64,000 bases of DNA from Dehalococcoidia bacterium (lineage in GTDB: Bacteria; Chloroflexota; Dehalococcoidia; SpSt-223): the NCBI GenBank assembly GCA_025054935.1, contig JANWZD010000001.1, forward strand, positions 201,008 through 265,007, in the 5' to 3' direction. Below, piece by piece: positions 17,994 through 61,534 of this stretch. The notes under the pieces are model-generated. The model searched no databases and was not told the origin of the DNA. It saw nothing but the letters and a program-made list of their open reading frames with translations. Both the position numbers and the translations under genes were made by a program. Every line of letters starts with the position of its first letter. The stretch's first letter is position 1.

Positions 17994-18001
17994 GCGGGCC
18001 C

Positions 18002-35719: not shown

Positions 35720-35735
35720 TGTGACAAAGCTCACA
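35720..35735. promoter_or_regulatory. Perfect CRP/FNR-type palindrome TGTGA-N6-TCACA in the Gfo/typA divergent intergenic region
   Basis: Sequence tTGTGAcaaagcTCACAg read directly. It sits immediately downstream of a TATACT -10-like hexamer (35714-35719). Confidence 0.35.
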
Positions 35736-35751
35736 GAACAGCCAGAGCAGC

Positions 35752-35774
35752 GGGCGCGTCGTCGCGCCTTTTTT
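35752..35774 (+). terminator. Intrinsic-terminator-like hairpin (GGCGCG-tcgt-CGCGCC + TTTTTT) in the typA leader, 18 nt upstream of ATG 35793
   Basis: 6 bp all-GC stem, 4 nt loop, run of six T; an unusual feature in a 68% GC genome. No upstream same-strand gene to terminate, so it is a candidate attenuator or the end of a short leader RNA. Alternative reading: it lies inside the CDS if typA starts at GTG 35721. Confidence 0.45.
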
Positions 35775-35792
35775 GTGCAGCAGAGAGAGACC

Positions 35793-37655
35793 ATGCGCAC
35801 CCAACGGACTGATCTTCGCAATCTTGCGATCATCGCGCACGTCGACCATGGGAAGACGACCCTTGTCGACGCGATGCTGAAACAGAGCCGGGTCTTTCGC
35901 GAGCACCAGCAGGTGGGGAGCCTCATTCTCGACTCGCATGAGTTGGAGCGTGAGCGCGGCATCACCATCTTGGCCAAGAACACCGCAATCCGCTACCGGA
36001 ACGTCAAGATCAACATCATCGATACGCCCGGCCACGCTGACTTCGGCAGCGAAGTGGAACGAGTGCTGACGCTGGCCGACGGCTGTCTCCTGCTTGTCGA
36101 CGCGGTCGAAGGACCGATGCCGCAGACACGCTATGTGCTCAAGAAGGCCCTTGCGCTCGGGCTGCGCCCTATCGTGGGAATCAACAAAGTCGACCGGCCG
36201 CGCGCCCGTCCTCTCGAGGCGCTCGAAGCGACCCAAGACCTCTTCCTTGAAGTAGCGACCGACGCTGATCAGCTGGAGTTTCCCGTCGTCTATCTGGTCG
36301 CCAAAGAGGGGCGCGCCGGTGTTCAGCCCGACGCGCTCGCGCCGGACTTGACCCCCCTGTTCGAAACGATCCTCGCCGCCATCCCGTGCCCGACGGTTGA
36401 ACGGGATGCGCCCGTTCAAGCCCTGATCGCCGCGCTCGACTATGACCCGCACCTCGGCCGGATCGCTATCGGCCGCCTCATGCGCGGAACGCTTCGAACC
36501 GGCGCGCCGGTGGTGCGGGTGCGAAGCGATGGAGCCATCGCCCCCGAAAGCGGGCGCAAGGTCCGGCAGCTTCTCGTGTTCGAAGGGTTGAAACGGGTCG
36601 AGGTCACCGAGATCGCGGCTGGCGAGATCGTTGCGCTGGTCGGGCTCGACGACGTCGCGATCGGCGACACAATCGCCGACCCGGCATTCCCGGAGCCGCT
36701 GCCGGCGATCGCGGTCGATGAGCCGACAGTCCGGATCACGCTCGGCGTCAATACCTCGCCCTTCGCCGGCCGCGAGGGCAAATACCAGACCTCCCGCCAA
36801 CTGCGCGATCGGCTCGAGCGCGAACTGGAGACGAATCTCGGGCTGCGGGTAGAGGAGACCGAAAGTCCTGACCGCTTCCTCCTCAGCGGGCGGGGAGAGC
36901 TGCACCTCTCGATCCTGATCGAGACGATGCGTCGCGAGGGCTATGAGTTCGAAGTGTCGCGGCCGGAAGTGATCGTGAAGCGGGTCGATGGTCAGCTTCA
37001 GGAGCCGGTCGAAGAGCTCGTGATCGACACGACCGACGAGTACGTCGGCGCCGTCGCCGAACTTGTTGGGCCCCGCCTCGCGCGGCTCGTGAATATCCGC
37101 CACCGGGAGACAAGCGCCGGCACGACCGACGTTCGGCTCGTCTACCGCATTCCGACACGCGGGCTTATCGGGCTGCGCACCCAGCTGCTGACTGCTACCC
37201 GCGGCAACGCGACAATGAGCACTCTCTTTCTCGGCTATGAACCGTGGCAAGGCCCGCTCGCAGCGTCGCGCGGCGGCGCTCTGATCGCAACCGAGTCGGG
37301 CCGCGCCGTCGCCTACGGGCTGGCGAGCGCCCAAGAGCGGGGCCAGCTGTTCATCGAACCCGGGACCGAGGTGTATGAAGGGATGATTGTCGGCGTGGCG
37401 CCGCGGGCACTGGATATTCCGGTGAACGTCTGCCGTCAGAAGAAGGCGACGAACATTCGCTCCTCAACAGCAGAGATCGCCGTCAAGCTGACGCCGCCGC
37501 GCCGCCTCAGCCTCGAGGATGCGCTCGACTTTCTCGCCGCCGACGAACTGCTTGAGGTGACGCCAAAGAGCTTGCGTTTGCGGAAGCGGCTGCTCAGCGA
37601 GCACGAACGCGCTCGGGCGCGCAAGCAGGAAGCGAAGGCGGCTCTCGCGCTCTAG
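35793..37655 (+). CDS. typA: Translational GTPase TypA/BipA
   Basis: [36 protein letters not shown]. BipA-specific C-terminal domain. ATG 35793 gives an E. coli-like N-terminal length; GTG 35721 is an alternative. Confidence 0.9.
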
Positions 37656-37734
37656 CCGCTCGCGCTCTCCTCAGGCAGCGGCCGCTTGCCCGCCCGGCTG
37701 CAGGCGGGAGCAGGCACCCGGCGGAGACGGATGG

Positions 37735-40700
37735 CTAGTTCTCAATCACGATGCGGACGACTTTTCTGCCTCCTGTATCGACGACATAGAACCTGCCGTC
37801 GTCCGCCGCGACAATCTCAACCGGCAGCGTGAACAGCCCGGGCGCGCCGCCAACCTGCTGGACCCCTTCACGAACGTCGTAGCGCACGAGGCGGCCTCGG
37901 TCCGGGTCGGTGACCACCGGTCGGGAAGCAGCGTCGAGCACGAGGTGAGGTCCGTTCAGCGGGACAGACCAGTTGATCGGCCATTCCGCTTGATAGCGGC
38001 CGCCGGGGTCGAACCATTGGAGACGCTTGTTGCCGGTGTCGAGAACGAGGAGGTCGCCGGTCGGAAGCAGGGCAGCGTCGGTCGGTTCCAGCATCTCGCC
38101 CGGACCGGCGCCCTTTCTCCCGCCGTAGATGGTCAGCAGCTGGCCGTCGGAAGCGAACTTGAGCACGCGGTTTTGCCCCGTGTCGGAGATATAGAGATTG
38201 TCCGCCTCATCGATCGATAACCCGCGCGGCTTGTAGAAGTCGGACCGCGCTAACGGCAGCCGCCCCACAAACCGGCCGTCATCAAGGCGGTATTCGTGGA
38301 TCCCGGCTGTTGTCGCATCAAGGATGAACACTCGCCCCGATCGGGTGATGGCGATCCCGGTCGGCTCTTGGAGGCCGCCTGCTGTCGGCTCTGGACCCGC
38401 ATACGCGCGGATAAACTGCCCCTGGGGATCGAAGACGAGCACTCGCCGCGCTCCTCCATCAAGCACGTGCAGAGCGCCGGTAGGGTCAAGAGCAGCAGCG
38501 CGCGGCTCCTCAAGCCGTCCCTCAGGGGAAAGTCCGTAGGTCATCTCGACTCGAAGCGAGAGCGGCGGGCCGCTTGCGAAGCGCACGACGCCGCTCGGGA
38601 CGCGGACGGCGGCCTCTCGGGGAGCCGCAGGCACGGTCGGGCTCGGGGGAAGATCGCTCCCTTGGGGAGGCAGCAGCACCGCTGACGGGATCAGCTCGCG
38701 TCGTCGCCCTGGCGGCGTCCAGTAGAGGTAGATGCGCGAATAGGGATCGCGGTCGACGAACTTCAGCTGGAGATCGTGCAGCCCTGCCTCGAGCGGCACA
38801 TCTACCTCGTGGAGTTCGCTGCCGCGACGATTGTCGATAATCAGCCGGCCATTGAGAAAGAGTTGGGAAGTGCTGATCTGCTCTGTCCCAAAGCGGTAGA
38901 CACCTGGCTGGTCGATCCGGAGCGTGCCGCGCCACTCCACGCTGTAGGGGCGAGGAAGGGGCAGAATGTGGAAGTACATGCCGATCTGCGGATCGATCCG
39001 GAGAAGGGCGGGCTCTCCTGCCCACTCGGCGTTGGGATAATACGCGCCGAGCAGCCCTGTCGCCGCAACGGGAGGGAGATAGAAGAGGTTGGAGGGGATC
39101 GGGCTGAGCGTGCCGCCCGGCGGCTCCCAGGCCAATCGGACTGGTTGGCCTGGGCGGTCGGCACGAGCTCGGAGCAGGAGAGCGTGGTTGCCGGCTGCGA
39201 GGGTCAGCCGCGCTGCCTGGCCTCCGGTGAGCACGCGCGCGCCGTTGAGGAACAGCTCGGCACTGCTCGGTCCTTCAAGGAGCAGCCGGTAGCTGCCGTG
39301 CCGGGGAACGTGGAGCGTGCTCCGCCACTCCGCAAGCACCGGAACCGCGAGGCCGAGCGTGGCCGGGTCGATGTTGATCTCGGTCTCGCGGCGGCTGAGA
39401 TCGGGCCGCTCGCGTTCAGTTCCGTGCGCGAAGTAGCGCGCCTCAACGCCTTGGATGGCGACGATATCGGCCGGCGCGAGCTGAACAGCGTAGACGAGCG
39501 GAGGTCCGCCGAAGGGCGGACGCAGCTCCTCGACTTGGGCGCTGGGATAATAGAGCCGAAGCTGGCTGAACGCCGCCTGCTCGCTCGGGTCGAGGAAGAA
39601 GAAGGTCCGCGGAGCAACGGCGCGCACCGGTACGTCTGTTGCGGCGTTGAACAGGGCGCCTTCGGGCGCCTTCGGGGCGAGGAACCGGATTGTAGGCGGT
39701 CGGCCGGAGAAGAACTGGCTGAGGTAGACTGCATCGTTCGGAGAGAGCTCGCGAAGCCGCAGGGCAACGAGCGTTTCGGCCGCGGAATGGGCCGCAAAGG
39801 CGGCGAAGTCGTTTGCCCAGGCGACGAAGTAGCGATGATGGTTGACGACGGCGACGAAGAGGAGGGCGCTGCCGAGAGCGATGGTGCCCCCCGCTCGCCA
39901 AGCTCGCGACCATGCCGACGGGCCATGCCACCGCGCGGGGAGACGCGGAAACGTTCCAACCAGCAGCGCTCCGAGCGAGAGCGGGGTGCGGCTGCTGCGC
40001 GCGGCGGCCGCCGGGTTGCCGTACGTCCCCCAGGGGCTGCGCACCCAGCGGTCCCAGAGCGCGCCGAGCGGCAGCGCCGCAAAGATGAGCGTCGGCGGCA
40101 GCGCGGTCGATGCGCGCAGCGACTGCGGAGCTTCAAAGTTGAGGGAGAGGATCCCTCCAAGCAGCATCGTTCCCCACCAGATGATGAGGGTCGGCCCAGT
40201 CGGGCGGCGAAGCAGTCCCAACGTCAGCCCCACGCCGAGAACGAAGAGCGGCGCCAGAAGCGGGTCGAGCATCGGCCGGCCGGGAAGGTTATGGCGGCCA
40301 TTGCGGTCCCCCGCCACGTTAAACATCAGCAGGTGCTTCTCGATGTTGTCGAGCAGCGGGCCCCAGTGACCGGCTCGCTCCACTTCGGGCATCACGCTTG
40401 CGACCCCAAGCCTACGGTTGAACTCCTCGGGGAAGCGGACTGCAAACCATGCCAACGGCCCGGCCGCAATCAGCGCCGCGAGGGCGAGGAGGAGTGCGCC
40501 TTGGCTGATCGATGGCCAGAGCGATCGCCGCCAGAGCGCAGCCGCGAGGAGCAGAACGGCGAGGGTTACCGGGAAGATCCGTGACGGGAAGTAGAACTGG
40601 AGGTCGAACCCGACAAGAAGGCCGGCGATAACGAAGTCGCGCGGCCGGCGGTCTTGCAGTCCCCGCACGAGGAAAAACAGGACGAGCGTCTCGAGGGTAA

Positions 40701-41550
40701 TGCTGAAGATTGCGGTGCTGGTCGGAAAGCGGCTTAGGGTGACGTGCCAGCTGGAAACGGCGAGAAACCACGCCGCAATGAGCGCGATCCGCGGCGAGCC
40801 GAAGAGCCGGCGGGTGAGGAGGTAGATCGCGGGGATCCCCACGGTTCCCGCAATCGCTGTGGTCACCCGCAAGGCAAGAGGAGTCTCTCCGAAGACGAGC
40901 ATCGCGAGGGCGGCAAGGTAGATATTCGCCGCCGGGTTTTGGTTTTCGACGTAAAAAATCGGCCGGTATGTCGGCGAGGCGAGGATCTGCTGGGCGCCAA
41001 GGCCGACGACCGCCTCGTCGTACCACACTCCGAAGGGGAGCGTCGCTAGTTCTGCGGTACGGAACCAGAGCCCGACTGCGGTCGCGAGGGCGAGGATGGC
41101 CAGTTCAGCTCGGCCGATTGGCGGGCTGACCGGTGTCCGCGTGCCGGCCGGCAGCAGGAAGGCTGCGCCGAGTGTCATCGCAACAGCGGCGAGGTAGAGG
41201 AGCCAGGCGAGGTTTGGATTGCGGTCGCTTGAAAACAGCCAGAGGGAGCCTCCAAGGAAGAGGAAGGCAGCCGCGCCGGCAAAAGCTGACGGAAGCGCGG
41301 CCGTCAGCCGCGGCCAACGGCCTGTGCTCTCCCAGCCGTCAGGACCGGTGGCGGGCAGCGCGTACTGCGCCAGCGCGATTGCAATAAGGAACGCCGCCCC
41401 AGCAGCGATGAGGTCCGGCGGCTGGCTCAGGTAGCGAGCATTGGCGGCGACGGCGAGGACAATGGCGACGATCCCAGCGAGGAGGCGGCGCGGCTGCGAC
41501 GGGAAGAGGAGCCGGGTCGCCGAGCGGGAGGAGGGCGCCGCTGGTGCCAT
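37735..41550 (-). CDS. Large GT-C/GT39-like polytopic membrane glycosyltransferase homologue fused to tandem PA14 domains and a C-terminal NHL-repeat beta-propeller (1271 aa)
   Basis: N-terminal about 550 aa with more than 10 TM helices and a PMT/ArnT-like loop (GVWYDEAVVG). Middle: two PA14 signatures (GLLGAYYPNAEWAGEP...YRFGTEQISTSQLFLNGRLIID...LYW and an earlier degenerate copy). C-terminus: NHL repeats (YISDTGQNRVLKF, LVLDTGNKRLQWF, FYVVDTGGRKVVRI). Confidence 0.8.
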   Translation of the reverse strand: MAPAAPSSRSATRLLFPSQPRRLLAGIVAIVLAVAANARYLSQPPDLIAAGAAFLIAIALAQYALPATGPDGWESTGRWPRLTAALPSAFAGAAAFLFLGGSLWLFSSDRNPNLAWLLYLAAVAMTLGAAFLLPAGTRTPVSPPIGRAELAILALATAVGLWFRTAELATLPFGVWYDEAVVGLGAQQILASPTYRPIFYVENQNPAANIYLAALAMLVFGETPLALRVTTAIAGTVGIPAIYLLTRRLFGSPRIALIAAWFLAVSSWHVTLSRFPTSTAIFSITLETLVLFFLVRGLQDRRPRDFVIAGLLVGFDLQFYFPSRIFPVTLAVLLLAAALWRRSLWPSISQGALLLALAALIAAGPLAWFAVRFPEEFNRRLGVASVMPEVERAGHWGPLLDNIEKHLLMFNVAGDRNGRHNLPGRPMLDPLLAPLFVLGVGLTLGLLRRPTGPTLIIWWGTMLLGGILSLNFEAPQSLRASTALPPTLIFAALPLGALWDRWVRSPWGTYGNPAAAARSSRTPLSLGALLVGTFPRLPARWHGPSAWSRAWRAGGTIALGSALLFVAVVNHHRYFVAWANDFAAFAAHSAAETLVALRLRELSPNDAVYLSQFFSGRPPTIRFLAPKAPEGALFNAATDVPVRAVAPRTFFFLDPSEQAAFSQLRLYYPSAQVEELRPPFGGPPLVYAVQLAPADIVAIQGVEARYFAHGTERERPDLSRRETEINIDPATLGLAVPVLAEWRSTLHVPRHGSYRLLLEGPSSAELFLNGARVLTGGQAARLTLAAGNHALLLRARADRPGQPVRLAWEPPGGTLSPIPSNLFYLPPVAATGLLGAYYPNAEWAGEPALLRIDPQIGMYFHILPLPRPYSVEWRGTLRIDQPGVYRFGTEQISTSQLFLNGRLIIDNRRGSELHEVDVPLEAGLHDLQLKFVDRDPYSRIYLYWTPPGRRRELIPSAVLLPPQGSDLPPSPTVPAAPREAAVRVPSGVVRFASGPPLSLRVEMTYGLSPEGRLEEPRAAALDPTGALHVLDGGARRVLVFDPQGQFIRAYAGPEPTAGGLQEPTGIAITRSGRVFILDATTAGIHEYRLDDGRFVGRLPLARSDFYKPRGLSIDEADNLYISDTGQNRVLKFASDGQLLTIYGGRKGAGPGEMLEPTDAALLPTGDLLVLDTGNKRLQWFDPGGRYQAEWPINWSVPLNGPHLVLDAASRPVVTDPDRGRLVRYDVREGVQQVGGAPGLFTLPVEIVAADDGRFYVVDTGGRKVVRIVIEN

Positions 41551-41555
41551 CGCGG

Positions 41556-44500
41556 TTAGGGAAGCGGGTCAAATCGTTGGACGCGAGCGTTATTGCTGTC
41601 AACGACAAAGAGCGCGCCGTCCGGCCCGACGGCGACGCCAATGGGGAGATTGAAGCTCCCGGGCTCGGCGCCGAAGCGGCCCACGACATTGAGAAGCTGC
41701 CCTTCCGGCGAGAACCGGAGCAGCCGGTGGTTCTCGGGGTCGGAGACGATGACATTGCCGCTCGGGTCGACCGCGAGATACGGCTTGTTCAGAATGCCGG
41801 TGCTCTCCCAGCCGCGGATCGGGGTCGCCCCCAGGGGGCGCAGGCTCGCGTCGAACCGCTGGATCCGTCGGTTCCAAGTGTCGGCGACGAAGATCGTGCC
41901 ATCGGGAGCAACGGCAATCCCGACCGGTTCTTGGAACTGCCCGAGCATGGCGCCGGCGCCGCCGAAGGCGCCGAGAAACTGCCCGTCCGGCCGGAAGCGC
42001 TGTATCCGCTTGTTGCCGGTGTCGGTGACGAGCAGCGACCCGTCATCGAGGAAGGCGATCGCGCGCGGCCCGTAGAACCGGCCGGGATTTCCCGTCACCT
42101 GCCCGACCGACTCGCCGAACTCGCCAAACTTCCGCAGAAAGCGGAGATCGGCGGTGAACTGCTGGAGGCGATGGTTCCAGGTATCAGCGACCCAAACGGT
42201 GCCGTCAGGCGCGATGGCGATCCCCCACGGCTCGGTGAATTCACCATCAAGCGTTCCCCGGCGGCCGACCTGAGCGACCACGCGGCCGGAGGGATCGAAC
42301 TTCTGCACCCGATGGTTACCCGTATCGACGACGTAGATGAAGCCGTCTCCATCGACGGCGATGCCGCGGGGCTCGAGCAGTTGTCCTGCGCCGCTGCCGC
42401 GAGCGCCGAAGGCTGCGCTCGGCTGAAGAGGGGTAAGCGCGAGAGCGTATTCATCCGGTTGCGCCGGCCGCGCCGGGCCGGCGGTCAGCGGCTCGCCGGC
42501 GAGAAGGGAGCTCTTGACGAAGAAATAGCCGTCTTCCGAGCCGAGCGGCTTGCCCAGGTCGCGGTTGAAAAAGTACTGCCACAGCCGTTCTAGCCCGGTG
42601 GGACTGAGCGACGCCGCGACGGCATCGCTGAACCCAAACGCGCTGTTCGGGCGTCCCGGCTGAGCGGCCAAGGGGGAGCCCATCGCGGCCACCCACTCGA
42701 TAGCGCTCTTGTAATCCTCGGGGAACCACCAGCGATGACGGTAGCGCTGCCCGGGGGTGTAGTCGCTCAAATACGGGCGCATCCGCTCCACATTGTTGGC
42801 GTGGATAAGCACCACCTGCCCGGCGGGCGGAGCAGCAGCACCGCTGTAGGAGGGGTAGTCGACGTTCGGGTAGTGGCGGAGATACCACGCCCAGGGCCAA
42901 GTAAAGCCGCTGGTGCTGTCGACGGAAATGCGCAGCTCTTTTCCGCCTGTAGCCCGGAGAGAGAGCCGTTCGATTTCGCGGTACAGCCGAGGGATATCCG
43001 GGGAGGTTTGGGTGTAGATCAGCATCTCGGTGGCGATATCGCCGTGTTTGTAGGTGACAGTCCACGCAGCGCGCATCGTGAGGACGAGCAGGATCAGGAC
43101 GATCGCGCCGCTTGCGGCGCGGACGATCCCCGAGCCCCCGAACGGTGCCCCAACCTGAACAGCGGCCCCGACAAGGAGCAGCGCGATCCCGATCAGGGCG
43201 AGCGCTTGGCCGTTCCATCCCGGTGCGAGGTCGGCGGCGGCTTGAATCAGGCCGGCGGCCCCTGCCGCAAGAACGACCGCTGCCGCGATGAAGAGCGCAA
43301 CCACCGCGGCGGCCCGCCACGCCACGTCCGAGTTCCACCGCACCCCCTCAAGCCACCAGCCTGCTGAGCGACCCGCAAGCACGATCAGCGGCAGCGCGAC
43401 GTGGACAAGCAGCCACGGCATCTTCTCGCCTGCCCAGCTGTACGCAACGAGCGAGCCGACAAACCAGTAGAAGAGAAACGCAACGAATGGTGTCAGCCTC
43501 TCCCGGTGGCGAACGAGGGAGGCAATCCCTGCGCCGGCAAGGGCAAGCGGAAGGAATTCATAGAGCGGCAGCAGCAGGAGGTAGTAGTACCACGGCTGGT
43601 TGCCGCGCTGCACCCCATGCTGGTCGAGCCAGTAGGCGAGACTGCCCCAGACCCCAGACCCGATCCCCGGCAGATTGGTAAAGAAGGTGCTGTACAGGAG
43701 CACGAACACTGTCCAGAAGAGCGCCGCATATCCCGGCCAGACGGTTCGGTTCCACCACAAGCCGACGGCGGTCGAGATGACAAAACAGATGCCAGCGATC
43801 ACGAACTGCGAGAAGATCGCCCGCGTGGTCACCCAGGGCCCAAAAGCGATGACAGTCGGGTCTGTCGAGACGAGGGGTGTCAGCTTCGCAAAAGCGGCGA
43901 GCAGGGGCAGAGTGAGCGTGCCGAGCAGGATCAGGACGCCGAAGATCCTGTTGTCCCGCACCTCCTCCAAGCGAGGAAGGCGCCCTTTCCCAGCGAGATC
44001 CCACAGCCAATAGGCGGTGAAAAAGCTGCCGAACACCGCAACGGTAATGTAGTGGGTCTCCTTTGCCGAAAAGCCGAGCGCCATCATCAGCGTCCCGAGA
44101 TAGAGCCAGCGAACTTCCTTGCGCTCGATGTACCGCCAGGCCGCGAGTGCCAAGAGGAGGGTGAAGACCGCCATCAGGATGTCGTTGCGGGAAAAGCGGC
44201 TGTAGTACAGCATCGTCGGCGAGAAGGCGAGCAGCACCGCCGTGACGAGCGCGCCGCCGCGGCCGAGGAGGTCGCGCATGAAGAAGGGGAGGAGAACGAG
44301 GACGGTCCCAAAGGTCGCGTAGAGGAGGCGAGCCGTGACGTCGTTGTCGCCAAACAGAAAGTAGATCAGGGCGTTTACGTGAAACTGAAAGGGGCCGTGC
44401 ATCATCGGGTCGTGCTGGTAGCCCCGCCCGGCGTAGAGATACCAGCTATAGAGCACGTGCAAGCTCTCATCGTGATGCATCGCGCGCGTTCCGAGATCCC

Positions 44501-44660
44501 AGAACCGCATGATGGCTGCGACAAGGGTCAGCCCAGCGTAGGCCAGCGTCTCCCAAGTGACGCTGACGACGCTGAACACCCGGTCAACAGCGTCGCCGCG
44601 AGCGGAGAGCGAGCGGAGAGGGAGAAGAGCTCGAGTCATGCGCCTGCTCCTCGCTGGCAC
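41556..44660 (-). CDS. GT-C fold membrane protein (DE motif HHDESLH; TIGR03663-like by my recollection) with a C-terminal six-bladed NHL-repeat beta-propeller (1034 aa)
   Basis: N-terminal roughly 650 aa hydrophobic, with an extracytoplasmic first-loop DE motif typical of GT39/GT83. C-terminal NHL repeats (YVVDTGNHRVQKF, WVADTWNHRLQQF, LVTDTGNKRIQRF, FVADTWNRRIQRF, IVSDPENHRLLRF, FVVDSNNARVQRF). 5 nt gap to the downstream gene. Confidence 0.8.
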   Translation of the reverse strand: MPARSRRMTRALLPLRSLSARGDAVDRVFSVVSVTWETLAYAGLTLVAAIMRFWDLGTRAMHHDESLHVLYSWYLYAGRGYQHDPMMHGPFQFHVNALIYFLFGDNDVTARLLYATFGTVLVLLPFFMRDLLGRGGALVTAVLLAFSPTMLYYSRFSRNDILMAVFTLLLALAAWRYIERKEVRWLYLGTLMMALGFSAKETHYITVAVFGSFFTAYWLWDLAGKGRLPRLEEVRDNRIFGVLILLGTLTLPLLAAFAKLTPLVSTDPTVIAFGPWVTTRAIFSQFVIAGICFVISTAVGLWWNRTVWPGYAALFWTVFVLLYSTFFTNLPGIGSGVWGSLAYWLDQHGVQRGNQPWYYYLLLLPLYEFLPLALAGAGIASLVRHRERLTPFVAFLFYWFVGSLVAYSWAGEKMPWLLVHVALPLIVLAGRSAGWWLEGVRWNSDVAWRAAAVVALFIAAAVVLAAGAAGLIQAAADLAPGWNGQALALIGIALLLVGAAVQVGAPFGGSGIVRAASGAIVLILLVLTMRAAWTVTYKHGDIATEMLIYTQTSPDIPRLYREIERLSLRATGGKELRISVDSTSGFTWPWAWYLRHYPNVDYPSYSGAAAPPAGQVVLIHANNVERMRPYLSDYTPGQRYRHRWWFPEDYKSAIEWVAAMGSPLAAQPGRPNSAFGFSDAVAASLSPTGLERLWQYFFNRDLGKPLGSEDGYFFVKSSLLAGEPLTAGPARPAQPDEYALALTPLQPSAAFGARGSGAGQLLEPRGIAVDGDGFIYVVDTGNHRVQKFDPSGRVVAQVGRRGTLDGEFTEPWGIAIAPDGTVWVADTWNHRLQQFTADLRFLRKFGEFGESVGQVTGNPGRFYGPRAIAFLDDGSLLVTDTGNKRIQRFRPDGQFLGAFGGAGAMLGQFQEPVGIAVAPDGTIFVADTWNRRIQRFDASLRPLGATPIRGWESTGILNKPYLAVDPSGNVIVSDPENHRLLRFSPEGQLLNVVGRFGAEPGSFNLPIGVAVGPDGALFVVDSNNARVQRFDPLP

Positions 44661-44696
44661 GGGTGCGGCCAGCTCGCAGAAGAAGTCGAAGCGGTG

Positions 44697-46493
44697 TCAT
44701 CTCAGTATGACCAGAAGAGCTTCGCGGCGAAATCCCGTTTCGCCGGCCGTGCGCCAGACATACCAGCGCCAGAAGGAACGCGCCCCTTCTGGCGGACCGT
44801 AACTTCCAAGAGCGTAGACGCTGCGTATCCCGCTTGCTGCCGTCTCCGGGAGAGACGTGCCGACCGGCACAATCGCTGCATCGAGCCCTCCCGCGAGGTC
44901 AGCGCGCATGCGCATGCCCGGCTGATCGCGGAGGAGCCAGGCAAACGGAACCCGCAGCTCCGGGGCGACACCGTAGGCGATGATGCCTCCCCGCGCGGCG
45001 CGCAGTTCCGCAATCTGCTCGGGAAAGATCTGCGCGGCGGGGCCGGGAACGTCTGGCAGCACCCACTCCCCGGCGCTCGGTCGGGCGTTCAGCGCGAACG
45101 AGGCGTGGATCGACCCCATCAGCAGGAGCGCCGCTCCGGCAAGTGCCGTCACCGGCAGGGCGTTCCGGCCGAGGGAAGCAACGACGAGCACGCTGTAGCC
45201 GCCGGCGAGGGCAAGACTGAGAAAAACGGCCAGCCACTGCAGCGGCGTTCCCCCATCGCTGCGTGTCAGCACCGCCGATTGGATATAGGCGTAGACCAAG
45301 AGGGGGATTGCGCCGAGCAGCGCTGCTCCTCGCGCGAGGTCGTCGCGTCGCAGCGCGCAAAGTACATCCGCAAGCGCGGTGGCGGCGAGGAGGGCAAGGG
45401 GGAACGCGATCGCGGCGAGCGGTCCGACGAGGCGCTGTCCGCCGAGCACCGCGACGGCAAGCGCGACACCGCTCCAAAGAGCGAGAAAAGCGAGCGCCTG
45501 CCGGCTCCGCGGCTCGCGCGCTCTCCCGCTCAGCAGCCACAGGATGCCCGCAGTCCCCGCGCCGAGCGTGAGCGGGTCGTAGCTCACCAACGCCAGGGGC
45601 GGCAGGAGCGCGCTGCCGCCGGTCGTAAATTCGCGGACCCAGCCGTTGACCGCGGGCAGCGCGAGCCCGCTCGGGTCGAGGAAGAACCGGGTCGAGACGA
45701 GAAGGAACAACAGGAGCGCCGCAAGCACTGCACCGCCGAGCGAGGGGGTCTGCCCCCTCTCAGTGCGCCACCGCGTCAGGAGCGCCGTGAGCGGCGTCGA
45801 CGTCCCGAGCAGCCGGGCGATGACGAGAGCGACGGCAGCCGCGAGGAGGAGGGTGACCGCGCGAGGACCGCTCGTCAGCAGCATGGCGAAGGCGAGAATG
45901 GCCGTCGCGGCCCAGCCGGCCTGGCCATCCCGCTCGAAGCGCAGGAGACCAAGCAGCGCCACCACCGCCGCCAGAAGAGCGAGCGCGTCCGGTTCCCCGC
46001 GGCGCGAGATGGCGAGCGAGAAGGGACTGACGGCGAGCAAAAACGCGGCCAGAAGGGCGGCAAGCCGCCCGAGGAACGGTCGGAACGCGGGCATCAGGGC
46101 GACTGTCGCCGTTCCAGCGACGACCGACGGAAAGCGGGCAGCGAGATCTGAGGGAGTGGCAAGGAAGAAAACCAGCGCAGTGAGCAGGTCGGCGAGCGGC
46201 GCGCTGCTCCCCGCGGGGCGGCCGAGAGTGAGGTCAAGCGCTGCAAGCGCGGTCGCGCTTTCACCGAGCGAGAGCGGGTCGCTCGCGGCGAGCCCAAGCC
46301 GCAGTCCGGCAGCGACGACAATCGCCACGCCGTAGAGGAGCCATTCGAGCGGGACCGCAACCGCGGGGCGGTTGAGCATCGCCTCGAGAGCGGGAGGCGC
46401 GCTGCCGCTCGCGCTGCGGACGGAGGGCGACAGCTCTGCCACCGCGCTAGCGGGCTCGGAAAATCGTTGCGCTGCCATTCTGAAATGCCACAT
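44697..46493 (-). CDS. GT39-like polytopic membrane protein (putative glycosyltransferase), start uncertain
   Basis: Multiple TM helices and a D..E-containing first loop. ORF-track frame begins at TTG 46559, overlapping the YYY gene by 113 nt. ATG 46493 or 46478 avoids the overlap. Confidence 0.6.
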   Translation of the reverse strand: MWHFRMAAQRFSEPASAVAELSPSVRSASGSAPPALEAMLNRPAVAVPLEWLLYGVAIVVAAGLRLGLAASDPLSLGESATALAALDLTLGRPAGSSAPLADLLTALVFFLATPSDLAARFPSVVAGTATVALMPAFRPFLGRLAALLAAFLLAVSPFSLAISRRGEPDALALLAAVVALLGLLRFERDGQAGWAATAILAFAMLLTSGPRAVTLLLAAAVALVIARLLGTSTPLTALLTRWRTERGQTPSLGGAVLAALLLFLLVSTRFFLDPSGLALPAVNGWVREFTTGGSALLPPLALVSYDPLTLGAGTAGILWLLSGRAREPRSRQALAFLALWSGVALAVAVLGGQRLVGPLAAIAFPLALLAATALADVLCALRRDDLARGAALLGAIPLLVYAYIQSAVLTRSDGGTPLQWLAVFLSLALAGGYSVLVVASLGRNALPVTALAGAALLLMGSIHASFALNARPSAGEWVLPDVPGPAAQIFPEQIAELRAARGGIIAYGVAPELRVPFAWLLRDQPGMRMRADLAGGLDAAIVPVGTSLPETAASGIRSVYALGSYGPPEGARSFWRWYVWRTAGETGFRREALLVILR

Positions 46494-48786
46494 CAAGGTG
46501 CGACGCCAGCCGCTCTCCGACGCCTGCGCCGTATTTCTGCCTTTCGAGGCTGCCGACAAAGACGTACTCTGCGTTGTACTTCTTCAGGAGAGCAAGCAGT
46601 TCGTCGCGGCTTGCAGCAGTGTAGATGCGGTCGATCTCGGCATCGCGGCCGCGGAACGGCGCGTCGGACCCGCGCCACTGACGCTGATGGCCTGCCCAGC
46701 CGAGGATCGTCGGAATTCCGGTGCGCGCCGAGACCCGCCCAAACTCGGAGTACTGCCCCCCTGTCGCCTCAACGACGACGGCGCCTCGGCTCGCCTGAGC
46801 GGCCAGCCAGTCGATCGCTTCCGCTTCCCCGGGGGCAGCGGCGCGGGCGAACGCCAAGCCGTCGAGCGTCGGCTGCCCGGTGAAGCCGTCAGCCCTGCTC
46901 CACGTTGCAGCAAGCGTGTAATACATTCCCCCTGCAATCAGGATAAGACATGCCGCGACGATCACCCCGCGCTTCCACTGGCGCAGCGTTTGCGGCCAGA
47001 GCGAGACAAGAGCGTAGCCCCCTGCGACGGCGAGGAGGGTCCACGCTTGGAAATACAGCTTGAAGACCGTGTTCATTCGGTTCCCAAAAACGTCCAGAAT
47101 GAAAAAGTGTTCGGCCGCAAGATGCAAGAGGAAGGCGGTGCCGAGGAGCAGCGCTGCGAAGGCATCAGGGCGCGAGGGGGTCCGAAAGGCAACTAGGAGC
47201 GCAAGGGTGACGATGGCGGCAAGAGGAAGCGAGATCGCCGCCTTCGCCGGCAGAGAGTCGATCACGAGCGGCGCTGTCCCAGTGCGCACGGCGGCGGGCA
47301 GCGTCACCAGCAGCCAAGCAGCTGGGAGAGCGGCCCCGATGAGGAGCGCCGGCTGAAGCGCGCGGCGCCAGCCGGCATCGAGCTGCCCCAGCTGCCAGCC
47401 GACGAAGGCGATGGCCGGGAGAGCCAGGGGGCCCCAGAAGAGCGCCCAATGGTGCGGCTGGGTCGCGACTTGGACGACAGGGCGAATGCCCGACGCCTGT
47501 GACGAGAACGAAAGGTAGAACGGAAGGTAGAGAACGAGACTTGCTCCTCCAAGCGCGAGGGCAAACAGGCCGACATCGCGGATCAGCCGGCGGTCGAGAT
47601 GGCCAGCTTTGCGGTACGCGCTCAGGGCGACTGCCGCGACGACGAGCCCGCCGTAGGTCGGCAGGTCCCACGAGTTGAGAAAGCCGAGCGCGCCGACGCA
47701 GATCGGTAGTGCCGCTGCCTGCCAGGGGTGAGCGCGCGCCCACCGCATTCCCCAAGGATACGGAGAGTGAAAGGCAGCAGCAGCGATGCCGACAACGAGG
47801 AGGTTAAACGGCAGGGCCAGCACGTGCGGATGCAGATCGCCGAGCACGAAGCTGAAGATCGGGAACTCGTTGATGGTGTAGTCGATTCCTTGGCCGTCAC
47901 GGAACGTGTTGATGACCCGGGTCGCCTTCCACCACCACCAGTGTTCTGTTGGGGTCCAACTGGCGGCACGGTAGGGATGCGTCAGCCCGTCGATGGCAAG
48001 CGCGCTCCAGAATTCCGCGGTGCCCCAGCCCCGCGACCGCGCGAAATCGAGCAGGCCGACCAAGTTGCCCATCCCGACCAGCAGCACCGTGCCAAGCAGG
48101 CCGGCGAGCATGGTCTGCCGCGGCGTGGCCGCAGGCCAGCGCGCAATGACGAGCGACGAGACGAGCCCGAAAGCGGCGTGAGCGGAGAGCGCCATGACGA
48201 GCGCCAAGGCGAGATTGAACGCGACCGAGGCCGGGGTTGCGGCGAGGTGGGCGAGCATCCCAACGAGGACATAGCCGAAGTAGTAGTACGAGACGGTGTA
48301 GCCGGCAAGCCAGGGGTCAGGGGGAGGGAAGGCGTCGGCGCGCAGCACCGCATTGAGGAACAGCAGCTCCATCGGCTTCTCGGTGCCGGCAATCTCGGGA
48401 GCGTAGGCGCGGACACTTGCCCACCCGATGAAGATCACCGCAAAAAGCGCCTCGCCCGCCAGCAGCCGTTGCCAGTTGTCGCGCATCCAGGCAAGCTGCA
48501 GCGCTGCCTGCACGCGTCCGCCGAGCGCTGCCAGCCCGCCGAGAGCGAGGAGAGCCACGCCGAGCACCGCAGCCCCGCGGTTTGGCGGAAACAGAGAAAG
48601 CGAAGCGCCAATCCAGAAGAAGAAGCCCGTGAAAATGATGCCGAGCGGCCGCGCGAGGCTGAGGCCGCGGTCGGCAAGCTCCGGAAAGAGGCGCAGTGCC
48701 AAGGGCGCCGCCGCAAGCCCAATCAGGGTGGAGAGCAGCCACCAGCCGAGAACTGGCAGCGCGACTGCCTCGATCAGCGCGGACAT
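46447..48786 (-). CDS. DUF2298 / 'Chlor_Arch_YYY' family polytopic membrane protein
   Basis: The YTVSYYYFGY motif and the overall about 780 aa multi-TM layout match what I recall as the TIGR03662-type family, which is restricted to Chloroflexi and Archaea. C-terminal soluble domain (EATGGQYSEFGRVSARTGIPTILGW). 3 nt gap after ftsY. Confidence 0.8.
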   Translation of the reverse strand: MSALIEAVALPVLGWWLLSTLIGLAAAPLALRLFPELADRGLSLARPLGIIFTGFFFWIGASLSLFPPNRGAAVLGVALLALGGLAALGGRVQAALQLAWMRDNWQRLLAGEALFAVIFIGWASVRAYAPEIAGTEKPMELLFLNAVLRADAFPPPDPWLAGYTVSYYYFGYVLVGMLAHLAATPASVAFNLALALVMALSAHAAFGLVSSLVIARWPAATPRQTMLAGLLGTVLLVGMGNLVGLLDFARSRGWGTAEFWSALAIDGLTHPYRAASWTPTEHWWWWKATRVINTFRDGQGIDYTINEFPIFSFVLGDLHPHVLALPFNLLVVGIAAAAFHSPYPWGMRWARAHPWQAAALPICVGALGFLNSWDLPTYGGLVVAAVALSAYRKAGHLDRRLIRDVGLFALALGGASLVLYLPFYLSFSSQASGIRPVVQVATQPHHWALFWGPLALPAIAFVGWQLGQLDAGWRRALQPALLIGAALPAAWLLVTLPAAVRTGTAPLVIDSLPAKAAISLPLAAIVTLALLVAFRTPSRPDAFAALLLGTAFLLHLAAEHFFILDVFGNRMNTVFKLYFQAWTLLAVAGGYALVSLWPQTLRQWKRGVIVAACLILIAGGMYYTLAATWSRADGFTGQPTLDGLAFARAAAPGEAEAIDWLAAQASRGAVVVEATGGQYSEFGRVSARTGIPTILGWAGHQRQWRGSDAPFRGRDAEIDRIYTAASRDELLALLKKYNAEYVFVGSLERQKYGAGVGERLASHLDVAFQNGSATIFRAR

Positions 48787-48789
48787 GGG

Positions 48790-49749
48790 CTACTCGAACA
48801 ATTGCCGCACGTACTCGGCTGGGTCGAAGTCGACAAGATCGTCGAGCTGTTCCCCAGTCCCCAGATAGCGGATCGGCAGGCCCAGCTCATTGGCGATGGT
48901 GAAAGCGATCCCGCCCTTGGCAGTGCCATCGAGCTTTGTCAGCACGATCCCGTCGATATCGGCGGCTTGGGCGAACGCTTCCGTCTGCAGGATACCGTTC
49001 TGGCCGGTGGTGGCATCGATGACGAGCAGCACCTGATGGGGCGCGGTCGGGTCGACCTTAGCGATGACGCGCCGGATTTTCCGCAGTTCCTCCATCAAGT
49101 TCGTCTTCGCGTGCAGCCGGCCAGCGGTATCGATGATGACCACATCTGCTCCCCGGCTGCGTCCCGCTTCAACGGCGTCGTAGGCAACAGCGCCGGGGTC
49201 GGCGCCGGGCTGATGGGCCACAACTTGGACGCCGATCCGGTCCGCCCACACCTTCAGCTGCTCGATGGCGGCGGCACGGAAGGTATCTGCGGCGCCGATC
49301 AGTACCCGCTTCCCCTGCCGGTGCCAGCGGTGCGCAAGTTTGGCGATAGTCGTCGTTTTGCCAGTTCCATTGACGCCGACGATAAGGAGTACGAAGGGTC
49401 GGCCGTCGGGAAATCGCCGCGGTTCCCGCTCAAAGGGGCGGTCGTCCTCCTCCTCCACCTCGCGCAGCACGGCGCTCATCTCTTCTTGCAGCGCCTGCTT
49501 GGCGCGGTGCGCATCCGTAATCCCCTCCTCGCGGACACGCTCGCGGAGCCGGCTGAGGAGCTCTTCCGTCGTGCTCAGGCTGAGATCGGCGCTAATCAGC
49601 GTCTCTTCCAGCGCTTCCCAGAAAGCATCATCGATCTGACGGCGCTCAAAGACCGCCGCAACGCGCTGGAAGACCGCGTCTCGGGTTCGACGGAGGCCAA
49701 AGTCGATCTTGCGAAGGCGCTCGAACATCGCTCTCTCGAATGCTAGCAC
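48790..49749 (-). CDS. ftsY: Signal recognition particle receptor FtsY (short form)
   Basis: SRP54-type GTPase motifs: GVNGTGKTTT, DTAGR, TKLDG. GTG 49749 or ATG 49728 start. Confidence 0.9.
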   Translation of the reverse strand: MLAFERAMFERLRKIDFGLRRTRDAVFQRVAAVFERRQIDDAFWEALEETLISADLSLSTTEELLSRLRERVREEGITDAHRAKQALQEEMSAVLREVEEEDDRPFEREPRRFPDGRPFVLLIVGVNGTGKTTTIAKLAHRWHRQGKRVLIGAADTFRAAAIEQLKVWADRIGVQVVAHQPGADPGAVAYDAVEAGRSRGADVVIIDTAGRLHAKTNLMEELRKIRRVIAKVDPTAPHQVLLVIDATTGQNGILQTEAFAQAADIDGIVLTKLDGTAKGGIAFTIANELGLPIRYLGTGEQLDDLVDFDPAEYVRQLFE

Positions 49750-49790
49750 CGCTCTCGGCGCAGCACCATCGCGCTGCCGGCGTCATGTCG

Positions 49791-50150
49791 CTAGGGAAGA
49801 AAGAGGCGGACTGTTGTTCGCTGACCGTAGGCACGCTCAATATCGCGGCCGAATTCCCGGTCGGGAGCGTAGAGATCGATCCATCCCTCGCTGCCGAGAT
49901 TTCCTCGGTCGAGGCAGATCACCGGCCGGCCATCCTTGAAGACGGCGACCGTGCCGAGGGGGATGTCCCACGAACAGGCAGCCGCCCCGACAAACGGCGG
50001 GATGCCGGAAAAGGTAGCTCGCCCGGTCGGAAGATAGTAGCTGACGCGGACCTGCTTCGCGGGGACAAAAGTGACCGCGCCGGCGACCCCCGGATTTGTC
50101 CCGACGACCACGATCAGGGCGGCAGCGATTGCGCTGAAGCGAAGGATCAC
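49791..50150 (-). CDS. 3D (MltA-like) domain protein with an N-terminal signal anchor
   Basis: YLPTGRATFSGIPPFVGAAACSWDIPLGTVAVFKDGRPVICLDRGNLGSEGWIDLY fits the 3D-domain pattern (TASG...IPxGT...DxG..I.G..IDxY). Only start candidate in frame is GTG 50150 (VILRFSAIAAALIVVVG); poor SD spacing. Confidence 0.5.
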   Translation of the reverse strand: MILRFSAIAAALIVVVGTNPGVAGAVTFVPAKQVRVSYYLPTGRATFSGIPPFVGAAACSWDIPLGTVAVFKDGRPVICLDRGNLGSEGWIDLYAPDREFGRDIERAYGQRTTVRLFLP

Positions 50151-50276
50151 GCCAGGAAGATAGCAGGTCCCCTCTCCCCGATCGAGCGTTTCCCATGCGA
50201 CCGCCCGACTTCGATATGCTTCAGGAGCGCGCCTCCGGCGCCAGGGAAATGTCGTTCCACCTTCTCGAGGTGTCGC

Positions 50277-51584
50277 TTGGTCCAAGCACAGAATACTGAC
50301 GTGGCGGCGCTGCGCGCGCTGCCGCGCGAGGAGCTCGCAGAAGACCTGCTCAGCCGGAGCCCGAGCGAACTCGCCGAGCTGTTGAGCCGGCTGGGGGATG
50401 ACGCGCTCGCGGAGATCGTTGCCGAGCTCGATCCTGCCGACGCGGCACGGCTTTTGGGGAAACTGAGCCGCGCCCAGGCAGCGGCGCTGCTCGAAGAGAT
50501 GGACCCCGACGATGCCGTCGACATTGCCGGCGAACTCGAGGACGATGATGCCGAGGCGATCTTCATCGAGATGAACCCCCATGACGTCGAGGAGTTACGC
50601 CGGCTGATGAATTACCCGCCGGACAGCGCCGGCGGGATCATGACGACAGATTACGTCGCGATCAGTCCCGATCTCACTGCCGATGAGGCCTTAGTCGCGC
50701 TGCGCGCCGTGGCGGAGGAAGCGGAGACAATCTACTACATCTACGTCACCGACCCGGCAACGAACCGGCTGCTCGGGGTGCTCTCCCTGCGCAATCTCGT
50801 CCTCACTCGGCCGGAGACCCCGGTCCGCGACCTCATGGTGACGGAGATCGTCAAGACCCGCGTCGATGCCGACCAAGAGGAAGCCGTTCGCCTCCTCGAC
50901 CGGTACGGGCTCCTCGCGCTGCCGGTCGTCGACGAGGAGGACCGCCTTGTCGGCATTATCACCGCCGATGACGCCGCTAGCGTCCTGATGGAGGAGGCAG
51001 GAGAGGACATCGAGCGCCTCGGCGGCTCGCAACCGCTCGAAGAGCCGTATCTTCGGGCATCGATCCTGCATCTCGTCCGAAAGCGGCTTCCTTGGCTGCT
51101 CATCCTCTTTGTCGGCGGCGCCTACACCGGAACGGTGATCGCGGCGTTCGAGGAGACGATCTCCCAAGTGGTGGCGCTGACATTTTTCATCCCGATGCTG
51201 ATCGGCACCGGCGGCAATGCCGGATCGCAAATCGTGACGACCCTCGTTCGAGCGCTCGGCATGGGCGAAGTCAATCTGGGTCACCTCGGGCGCGTCCTCT
51301 GGCGCGAAGTGCGGGTCGCGGCGCTGCTCGGCACTGCGATGGGGATAGCGACCTACATCCGCGCCTGGACCTTGGGGGTCGGGGTCGAGATCGGCCCGGT
51401 TGTTGCCCTTTCGACCGTGACCATCGTTCTCTGGGCGGCGATCGTCTCCTCGCTCTTGCCCCTGCTGATCAGCCGGACCCGGATCGACCCTGCGGTCGTC
51501 TCGACCCCATTTATTACGACCCTCGTCGACGGCACCGGCCTGCTTATCTACTTCGTTATCGCGAGCAGGCTGCTGGGGATCTAG
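50277..51584 (+). CDS. mgtE: Magnesium transporter MgtE
   Basis: MgtE_N then tandem CBS domains then 5-TM MgtE domain (FIPMLIGTGGNAGSQ). TTG 50277 start with a GAGGTG SD. The upstream part of ORF-track frame 49740..51584 is not coding. Confidence 0.85.
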   Translation: MVQAQNTDVAALRALPREELAEDLLSRSPSELAELLSRLGDDALAEIVAELDPADAARLLGKLSRAQAAALLEEMDPDDAVDIAGELEDDDAEAIFIEMNPHDVEELRRLMNYPPDSAGGIMTTDYVAISPDLTADEALVALRAVAEEAETIYYIYVTDPATNRLLGVLSLRNLVLTRPETPVRDLMVTEIVKTRVDADQEEAVRLLDRYGLLALPVVDEEDRLVGIITADDAASVLMEEAGEDIERLGGSQPLEEPYLRASILHLVRKRLPWLLILFVGGAYTGTVIAAFEETISQVVALTFFIPMLIGTGGNAGSQIVTTLVRALGMGEVNLGHLGRVLWREVRVAALLGTAMGIATYIRAWTLGVGVEIGPVVALSTVTIVLWAAIVSSLLPLLISRTRIDPAVVSTPFITTLVDGTGLLIYFVIASRLLGI

Positions 51585-52730: not shown

Positions 52731-52744
52731 CGCTCCCTCCTCCG

Positions 52745-57168: not shown

Positions 57169-57248
57169 CTGCTCACTCCTGTTCGCAAAGACACCGCGCT
57201 CCTCCTTTGCCTGCGCTATTGGCTGGTGCGGCAATGACTCTCGTCGTC

Positions 57249-60963: not shown

Positions 60964-60977
60964 AGGAGGCGACGGCC

Positions 60978-61466: not shown

Positions 61467-61500
61467 ACCGAATAGCCGCCTCGGGCTACACTTGACAAAG

Positions 61501-61534
61501 AGCCGGGGTGCGCCCCGGCTCTCCTTCCTCTTGA
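61501..61534 (+). terminator. Intrinsic terminator: perfect 9 bp hairpin GAGCCGGGG-tgcg-CCCCGGCTC followed by TCCTTCCTCTTG
   Basis: Read directly from the sequence. Lies 35 nt after the stop at 61466. A second perfect 9 bp hairpin GTTCTCGCC-ggcgga-GGCGAGAAC follows at 61555-61578, just upstream of yceD. Confidence 0.55.

Follow-up and report, generated by a model that had tools for sequence, protein, structure and literature searches.

A conserved cluster of glycosyltransferase-C-type membrane protein genes downstream of ftsY in a Dehalococcoidia bacterium: a candidate module for envelope glycosylation

The present analysis examined a gene cluster at positions 37735-50150 of a 64,000-nt stretch of DNA from a Dehalococcoidia bacterium (the window). 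The cluster encodes a YYY protein (TIGR03662/DUF2298), a protein of the Agl23 family (TIGR03663), and two further membrane proteins of the PMT_2 type, which we interpret as members of the glycosyltransferase-C (GT-C) class. The G+C content of the window is 63-70%, and that of the genome is approximately 65%. Six open reading frames (ORFs) lie on the minus strand of this region, each with the high third-position G+C that real genes should show. The genes and their main domains are as follows.

g6: 49791-50150, minus strand, 119 aa, GTG start at 50150; hydrophobic N-terminus, predicted to be secreted
ftsY: 48790-49749, minus strand, 319 aa; signal recognition particle (SRP) receptor, 3 nt upstream of g4
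g4: 46447-48786, minus strand, 779 aa; YYY protein (TIGR03662/DUF2298) with a membrane core and a C-terminal globular domain
g4 C-terminal soluble domain: 46450-46881, minus strand, residues ~636-779; predicted oligosaccharyltransferase (OST)-like fold
g3: 44697-46559 as the longest ORF (620 aa) and 44697-46478 as refined (593 aa), minus strand; divergent PMT_2/Agl23-like GT-C paralog
g2: 41556-44660 as the longest ORF (1034 aa) and 41556-44639 as refined (1027 aa), minus strand; TIGR03663 protein with a middle soluble domain and an NHL propeller
g2 NHL propeller: 41565-42389, minus strand, residues 758-1032 in the 1034-aa numbering; six blades
g1: 37735-41550, minus strand, 1271 aa; PMT_2 GT-C protein with two PA14 domains and an NHL propeller
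g1 tandem PA14 domains: 38686-39438, minus strand, residues ~705-826 and 830-955
g1 NHL propeller: 37759-38520, minus strand, residues ~1011-1264

The longest ORFs are separated by 5, 36, 3, and 41 nt. The initial annotation had given the same ORFs and gaps, and the recomputed coordinates bore them out. It had also proposed an overlap of 28-45 nt between g4 and g3 from preferred start codons. The most likely start of g3 appears to be ATG 46478 because the only ATG of the orthologue in locus L001 aligns there; the resulting overlap of 32 nt falls within that range. ATG 44639 is most likely the start of g2 because an AGGAG sequence lies 7 nt upstream and the database gene call of 1027 aa (P0121) agrees with it, which leaves a gap of 57 nt between g3 and g2. 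Therefore, ftsY, g4, g3, g2, and g1 follow one another in the same direction with refined gaps of 3-57 nt and the one overlap of 32 nt. From this spacing, the cluster is predicted to be co-transcribed. The proposal of a six-gene operon stood for these five genes and failed for g6, which is absent from the conserved unit described below.

g4 is a full-length member of the YYY family. The database protein P0001, from a Dehalococcoidia/Chloroflexota metagenome-assembled genome, is 100% identical to g4, and P0121 is 100% identical to g2. g4 matched TIGR03662 ("Chlor_Arch_YYY") with 554.1 bits (cut-off 300.25, E 6e-166) over model positions 4-726 of 727, and DUF2298 with 365 bits (cut-off 27.8, E 9e-109). 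TIGR03662 is described as a family of strongly hydrophobic proteins of 700-900 residues with a YYYxG motif. g4, with 779 aa and many predicted membrane helices, carries SYYYFGY at residues 166-172; S166, Y167, Y168, F170, and G171 do not vary among 25 sequences. Its homologues also share invariant loop residues in the motifs TEKPM, DPW, SYYYFG, WW..R, EFPxFSxxLxDxHxH, NxWD, RMNxxFK, and WxGHxxQWRG. Among the acidic positions, D39, just after helix 1, is nearly invariant, and E136 and D157 are invariant. The DUF2298/YYY family is large (10,224 cluster representatives at 50% identity, 7,968 of them at E <= 1e-10). A literature search found no functional study of DUF2298, PF10060, or TIGR03662, and the matches for "YYY domain" concerned the unrelated Y_Y_Y domain. 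DUF2298 is named in two papers, both of them non-functional in scope; one lists a neighbourhood of DUF2298, PMT2/PA14, and PMT2 genes for another Chloroflexi genome in its appendix (PMC8756737).

An AlphaFold2 model of g4, built from 25 homologues, had high confidence (predicted local distance difference test 89.8, predicted template modelling score 0.93). The multi-helix GT-C core was recognisable by structure comparison, with fold-comparison values of 15.1 for ALG12, 13.5 for ArnT, 13.2 for AftA, 12.9 for Pmt4, 12.8 for AglB, 12.7 for STT3B, and 11.3 for PglB; AftB, AftD, DPY19, and others were also matched. Foldseek, used independently, placed DPY19, STT3A, AftA, yeast STT3, and PglB at the top ranks. 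In the model, the C-terminal globular domain is of the OST type and resembles that of AglB, STT3, and PglB. Sequence comparisons did not connect g4 with these enzymes. PF02516 (STT3) gave no match to g4 at E <= 10. The g4 profile gave only chance matches (E >= 0.1) to triosephosphate isomerase, and none to an OST, among PDB chains. A comparison of YYY with Agl23-type proteins by hhalign returned a probability of 9%, a sequence relationship thus being undetectable at the profile level. Since the GT-C fold is found without a sequence link to STT3, to solved chains, or to Agl23-type proteins, g4 is predicted to represent a GT-C family of its own, distinguished by a tail of the OST type. Membership of GT66 was considered and rejected: the STT3 family match is lacking, and WWDYG was not seen on direct reading of the C-terminal domain. 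To the extent that the models hold, what is new here is the GT-C fold of g4 with its AglB/STT3-like C-terminal domain and the ArnT-like core of g2.

g2, g3, and g1 share the PMT_2 domain (E 9e-17 for g1 and 3e-12 for g3; also matched by g2). g2 matched TIGR03663 over its full length with 295.5 bits (cut-off 126.25, E 7e-88), and g3 and g1 remained below that cut-off with 61.5 and 24.8 bits, respectively. The nearest solved fold to the membrane core of g2 was that of ArnT, not of a protein O-mannosyltransferase (PMT). TIGR03663 is described by an invariant DE dipeptide, HGP tripeptide, and set of Arg residues, all towards the N-terminus. The corresponding motifs of g2, HHDES, MHGPF, and YSRFSR, are invariant in 26 sequences, and HDES, HGP, and YSRFxR remain invariant in g2-type proteins across distant loci. 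g1 itself has a conserved WYDEA motif and no HGP; in seven g1-type proteins of other loci, the motif takes the form (Y/F/L)DE(A/S), with DE invariant. In both g2 and g1, the invariant DE lies shortly past the first core helix. This would match the position of the catalytic acidic residues in the GT-C enzymes PMT, ArnT, and PglB. A crude method placed approximately four extra N-terminal hydrophobic segments of g1, at 23-163, ahead of this motif.

g3 differs in these positions. LGES replaces HDES, and SAP replaces HGP. In the proteins at the g3 position of 22 other loci, the Glu alone is invariant, HGP is lost, and the residue at the Asp position is G, S, D, E, P, A, V, Y, F, or N. Because the Asp of the DE motif and HGP are lost in g3 and likewise at its position in 22 loci, g3 is probably a conserved paralog that is non-catalytic or mechanistically altered. 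By their motifs, g1, g2, and g3 represent three conserved subfamilies of the PMT_2 type. Agl23_C (PF26681) is found in the precomputed annotations of archaeal members and not in those of Chloroflexota members.

The soluble modules of g2 and g1 in the initial annotation, namely, a six-blade NHL propeller in g2 and tandem PA14 domains with an NHL propeller in g1, were recovered by hidden Markov model (HMM) searches. Six repeats were found in g2 both by a repeat HMM and by Pfam NHL, and its propeller matched TRIM71, the PknD sensor domain, and peptidyl-hydroxyglycine lyase (PAL) among PDB sequences. In g1, five NHL repeats were found with a gap of 45 residues that fits a sixth, divergent blade (Pfam NHL 1e-17); this propeller also matched Pfam SGL and DUF5128 (6-bladed propeller). 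The second PA14 copy of g1 was matched by Pfam at 830-955 (8e-15), and the first was sub-threshold (19.7 bits). The tandem is real because the two copies align to each other (33% identity over 127 aa, E = 8e-16). The best 120 database matches to g2 were all TIGR03663 proteins of ~1000 aa with NHL. Therefore, the view that the NHL fusion is rare or undescribed does not hold as to rarity, although no paper discussing the fusions was found. Relaxed Pfam scans of g4, its C-terminal domain, the middle domain of g2, residues 570-700 of g1, and g6 revealed nothing beyond the known families.

Gene order around the YYY gene is conserved in the phylum. The scan for YYY relatives used one genome per species, and at least 594 species encode one. 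The best 80 loci, all from Chloroflexota, were examined further, and their genes were annotated by phmmer on six-frame ORFs with the window domains as queries. An arrangement of the cluster type recurs in 80 loci of other Chloroflexota species, which argues that it is more than chance. The frequencies of its parts were as follows.

PMT_2/Agl23-type gene adjoining YYY downstream: 54/70 loci
Two or more PMT_2/Agl23-type genes downstream: 19/70 loci
Three or more PMT_2/Agl23-type genes downstream: 5/70 loci
NHL-fused GT-C gene downstream: 17/70 loci
PA14-fused GT-C gene downstream: 5/70 loci
Second, giant YYY gene (1500-2000 aa) upstream: 19/71 loci, mainly in metagenome-assembled genomes labelled Anaerolineae

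The order of YYY followed by an Agl23-like gene holds at a protein identity of only 36-44% and with differing upstream genes, either ftsY or a giant YYY gene. The number of GT-C genes after YYY ranges from 0 to 4 per locus. The full order of ftsY, YYY, a g3-type gene, a g2-type gene with NHL, and a g1-type gene was found in L001, L088, and L089. In 32 Dehalococcoidia loci, a PF03706 gene directly follows the Agl23-type gene, and a gene for an amine-oxidase-like flavoprotein is next in 27. The TIGRFAMs curators had already noted the co-occurrence of TIGR03662 and TIGR03663 in genomes.

Some variants of these arrangements were also observed. L089 has a fourth GT-C gene (13037-15457, 806 aa) with PMT_2 and a weak precomputed match to STT3 (PF02516), and with neither PA14 nor NHL. 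In loci of the Anaerolineae type, the ordinary YYY gene has a giant YYY-family ORF of 1500-2000 aa ahead of it (L005, L021, L023, L024, L041, L046, L047, L054, L055, L061, L066, L069, L071, and L072). The YYY representatives further include proteins of 2400-2700 aa with two or three YYY copies.

ftsY matched TIGR00064 at the equivalog level (1.5e-110). It is probably co-transcribed with the cluster, as a housekeeping gene and not as a component of glycosylation. Its linkage to the YYY gene, which had been pointed out from the window alone, is real and conserved: ftsY lies directly upstream of YYY on the same strand in 40/71 loci, with an estimated gap of 55 nt at the median and 3 nt at the minimum. 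However, ftsY belongs to a larger conserved block of unrelated housekeeping genes, with RNase III (rnc) in 28 loci and genes for a CCA-adding enzyme, a DinG-like helicase, and an OGG-like glycosylase in others. The linkage may therefore be inherited synteny and is weak evidence of shared function.

On gene order, g6 is a neighbour only and lies outside the conserved unit. Its homologues were found only in the two closest relatives, L001 (3168-3461) and L088, at 69% identity and on the strand opposite to ftsY. The earlier description of g6 as a 3D-domain protein is unsupported; none of the Pfam and NCBIfam families matched it even at E <= 10. g6 runs in the direction of ftsY in the window and diverges from it in L001 and L088, as if this one small gene had been inverted locally.

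Relatives outside Chloroflexota provide further context. On plasmid pNP95 of Pseudobutyrivibrio xylanivorans, a DUF2298 gene lies within a polysaccharide locus that contains two GT2 genes and genes for a DegT aminotransferase, a glucosyltransferase-domain protein, an O-antigen-ligase-family protein, and an NDP-sugar epimerase/dehydratase. On pHBOR02 of Halogeometricum borinquense (L084, 11980-14351), an annotated Agl23 gene overlaps a gene of the GtrA family (Pfam GtrA 7e-21) by 4 nt. GtrA is the flippase class of three-component glycosylation systems. No hidden GT2 gene was found upstream of this Agl23 gene. Two genes for GH18 chitinases and genes for PKD-domain proteins are located just upstream on the other strand.

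Several characterised systems resemble the cluster in part. The NCBIfam name of TIGR03663, "flippase activity-associated protein Agl23", follows Agl23 of Haloarcula hispanica, a putative hexose-P-dolichol flippase; its gene rescued yeast rft1-delta, M5GN2-PP-Dol/Phy was translocated by the purified protein in proteoliposomes, and the authors remarked on its lack of resemblance to Rft1 (PMC11182771). By its full-length match, g2 belongs to the same family, with the same PMT_2 core; it is ~30% identical to a haloarchaeal Agl23, and the (H/Y)DE and HGP motifs are common to both. However, the archaeal proteins (550-650 aa) lack the six-blade NHL propeller found at the C-terminus of g2. Moreover, g2 is a bacterial protein, for which the carrier is presumably a bacterial polyprenyl and not dolichol, and it is encoded near a YYY gene, whereas the haloarchaeal Agl23 genes examined are not beside one. 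These matches also changed two statements of the initial annotation, that the operon has no flippase gene and that the partner of YYY is noted only as a conserved hypothetical: g2 belongs to the family of a reported flippase of lipid-linked sugars (PMC11182771), and TIGR03663 is now named after Agl23.

The core of g2 is similar in fold to ArnT, the undecaprenyl-phosphate-L-Ara4N:lipid A transferase of GT83, but the cluster proteins add propeller and PA14 modules and do not reach the ArnT model. The monoderm cell of Chloroflexota is not known to have lipid A. GT83 membership was rejected because NF009784 was matched by g1 alone and with 15.3 bits (cut-off 567), and the likeness is one of fold only. 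The resemblance to PMT (GT39) consists of one Pfam clan, the PMT_2 domain in g1, g2, and g3, and a DE motif in what is probably the first loop. In contrast to PMT, the cluster has neither PF02366 (E = 1.1 for g1, absent for g2 and g3) nor MIR domains, so that the label "GT39-like" given earlier to g3 and g1 was not upheld. Bacterial Pmt was likewise rejected as a family assignment (NF058602 score of 26.9 bits, cut-off 800; no MIR match). Compared with the OSTs AglB, STT3, and PglB (GT66), g4 has a similar C-terminal fold and different conserved motifs (TEKPM, SYYYFG, and WxGHxxQWRG).

In three-component systems (Gtr-type, mycobacterial arabinan, and GT136), GT-C enzymes act outside the membrane on lipid-phosphate-sugar donors, and some of these enzymes bind the acceptor by C-terminal carbohydrate-binding modules; acceptor-binding modules are described for EmbC, AftD, and the GT136 enzyme (PMC11127046). 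The cluster is similar in the proposed action of GT-C proteins on lipid-phosphate sugars outside the membrane, and a haloarchaeal Agl23 gene is coupled to GtrA. The cluster differs in having four tandem genes of the GT-C fold instead of one, in its NHL and PA14 modules in place of immunoglobulin-like ones, and in its lack of genes for the synthase and the flippase.

We consider it somewhat more probable than not that the cluster serves the extracytoplasmic glycosylation of the cell envelope in Chloroflexota, as a module that uses polyprenyl-phosphate sugars. Domain identities, folds, motif conservation, and gene-order conservation were established directly. The proposal is based on the matches of g4 and g2 above curated cut-offs, the invariant HDES/HGP and (Y/F/L)DE(A/S) motifs, and the conserved gene order, together with the glycan locus on pNP95, the coupling of Agl23 to GtrA in Halogeometricum, and the precedent of enzymes with binding modules (PMC11127046). 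A role in glycosylation or glycan assembly, as initially suggested, thus remains the most reasonable reading of the cluster; what does not survive is its assignment to GT39 and the statements on flippases and conserved hypotheticals. The domain searches proposed at that time for the four large proteins returned TIGR03662/DUF2298 for g4, TIGR03663 for g2, and PMT_2 for g1, g2, and g3.

As a class, GT-C enzymes work at the outer face of the membrane, where polyprenyl-phosphate carriers supply their sugars. We propose that the module is built wholly of membrane proteins with the GT-C fold and that YYY (g4) and the Agl23-family protein (g2) form its core pair. Two PMT_2 paralogs would have been added by expansion in this lineage, g3 as a likely non-catalytic or altered partner and g1 as a protein that keeps DE. 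Lipid-linked sugars would be made and flipped by the products of genes elsewhere. g2 and g1 may then glycosylate a surface protein or a polysaccharide as the acceptor in the envelope, which the NHL and PA14 modules may hold in the manner of the carbohydrate-binding modules of EmbC, AftD, and the GT136 enzyme. g4 may carry out a distinct transfer step, possibly onto protein. Catalysis, the donor, the outward-facing soluble domains, and a physical complex are all conjectural parts of this proposal.

A number of observations weigh against such a module. The acceptor is hypothetical, and the sole experiments on a homologue of g2 show lipid translocation and not glycosyl transfer (PMC11182771). None of the ~40 window ORFs scanned is a GT2, GtrA, MATE, or nucleotide-sugar gene; this agrees with the initial statement that the operon has no nucleotide-sugar or polyprenyl-phosphate glycosyltransferase gene, and it means that donor synthesis is not encoded nearby. 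The global TM-scores of g4 against solved GT-C structures are low (0.30-0.43). The topology estimate from hydrophobicity and the positive-inside rule missed helices, so the outward placement of the soluble domains rests on analogy with solved GT-C proteins. Promoter and terminator scans of the cluster gave no signal above the shuffled expectation. Furthermore, Agl23 was not found beside a YYY gene in three haloarchaeal chromosomes, and the YYY gene on a Halarchaeum plasmid stands by itself. The YYY-Agl23 pairing is not universal because the two are unlinked in the haloarchaea examined.

The results on H. hispanica Agl23 raise another explanation, namely, that g2, and perhaps g3 and g1, are scramblases for polyprenyl-phosphate-linked sugars, that YYY is the only transferase, and that the NHL and PA14 modules tether the flippase at its site of use. 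We regard this as possible but rather unlikely. The suppression of rft1-delta and the translocation of M5GN2-PP-Dol/Phy in vitro agree with it (PMC11182771), as does the NCBIfam name of TIGR03663; a flippase beside a transferase would also account for the conserved pair, and the conservation of g3-type proteins without the catalytic-type Asp suits a non-enzymatic role. However, HDES and HGP are invariant, as would be expected of a GT-C active site, and the core of g2 has an ArnT-like fold. Lipid scrambling in vitro is common among polytopic membrane proteins once purified. Moreover, the Agl23 of Halogeometricum is translationally coupled to GtrA, itself a presumed flippase, which leaves the GT-C role to Agl23, and another flippase-like gene (PF03706) directly follows in 32 Dehalococcoidia loci. 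The genes might instead encode independent GT-C enzymes with targets of their own, kept together and beside ftsY by inherited synteny. Unrelated housekeeping genes around ftsY in the same loci (RNase III in 28), the range of 0-4 GT-C genes after YYY, the lack of linkage between YYY and Agl23 in haloarchaea, and the absence of operon signals in our scans are consistent with this explanation. Nevertheless, we find it improbable in view of the tight or overlapping spacing (3, 5, and 57 nt and the 32-nt overlap) and the order of YYY and an Agl23-like gene in 54/70 loci at 36-44% identity, across classes and with different upstream genes; the remark of the TIGRFAMs curators points in the same direction.

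Roles other than glycosyl transfer appear very improbable. YYY and/or g3 might be pseudo-enzymes that hold a lipid or protein substrate for some other reaction, such as PIGU/GAB1 of the GPI transamidase, for which the missing Asp of g3 would speak, or the propellers might themselves be enzymes of the lyase or lactonase type, given that peptidyl-hydroxyglycine lyase and gluconolactonases are among the matches to NHL and six-blade propellers. However, active glycosyltransferases outscore PIGU/GAB1 in the structure comparison, the loops of g4 contain dozens of polar and acidic residues that are invariant, as is typical of enzymes, and the conserved residues of the propellers are those of the structural NHL repeat consensus. 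A bolder form of the glycosylation proposal, which we hold to be doubtful, is that YYY/DUF2298 is a second, unrecognised OST-like class that transfers lipid-linked glycans onto secreted proteins as they emerge from the membrane, with donor delivery or extension by Agl23-type proteins. It would explain the OST-like C-terminal domain, the conserved place directly after the gene for the SRP receptor in Chloroflexota, and the presence of both families in haloarchaea. The O-glycosylation pathway of haloarchaea has been described as enigmatic, without a characterised homologue for assignments (PMC8305020).

Returning to the envelope glycosylation module, the predicted GT-C fold and OST-like domain provide the large and unstudied YYY family with a concrete and testable biochemical hypothesis. 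Agl23 is central to the current question of what flips lipid-linked sugars; its ArnT-like structure, active-site-type motifs, and coupling to GtrA in one archaeon suggest that transferase and flippase activities may be separated by experiment. The cluster is a candidate for a constitutive pathway of envelope glycosylation in a phylum with little-known envelope biochemistry.

The flanks of the cluster contain genes of other functions. Downstream of g1 lies typA/bipA on the plus strand, convergent with g1; the spacer between them (37656-37734, 79 nt) has a G+C-rich inverted repeat, CCCGCC...GGCGGG, without a T tract, and the terminator scan made no call there. The gene upstream of g6 is mgtE (plus strand), with a long ORF at 49740-51584 in which the MgtE domains begin at residue 197. 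Its true start is probably near 50230, and the 5' extension of ~165 codons, which overlaps g6 on the other strand, is probably untranslated because its third-position G+C is lower (0.68 vs 0.81). The remainder of the window mostly encodes housekeeping functions, including fusA, topA, xseA, glnE, sdhAB, and an htrA-like gene.

A PF03706 gene (LPG_synthase_TM, "flippase-like"; 32436-33428, minus strand, 6.6e-40) is located 4.3 kb downstream of g1. Its product is 27% identical to a protein encoded directly after the Agl23-type gene in the 32 Dehalococcoidia loci, and the gene may be a displaced third member of the conserved unit. In L088, the g1-type gene is followed, in the same orientation, by a gene for a GFO/IDH/MocA oxidoreductase (17472-18473); a gene of this kind in the window (34662-35663, minus strand) is parted from g1 by typA/bipA (35721-37655, plus strand). 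At 51591-53773 (minus strand), a gene for a luciferase-like monooxygenase is followed by one with a weak, sub-threshold match to GH130 (mannoside phosphorylase). This segment, between mgtE and sdhB, looks inserted; sdhAB is much nearer to ftsY in L088. Three further ORFs resemble coding sequence in their composition and matched nothing in Pfam at E <= 1e-5 (14930-17278, plus strand, 782 aa; 56389-57234, minus strand, 281 aa; and 60909-61820, minus strand, 303 aa). A gene for an N6-adenine DNA methyltransferase of the D12 class lies at 5017-5889 on the minus strand (1e-56).

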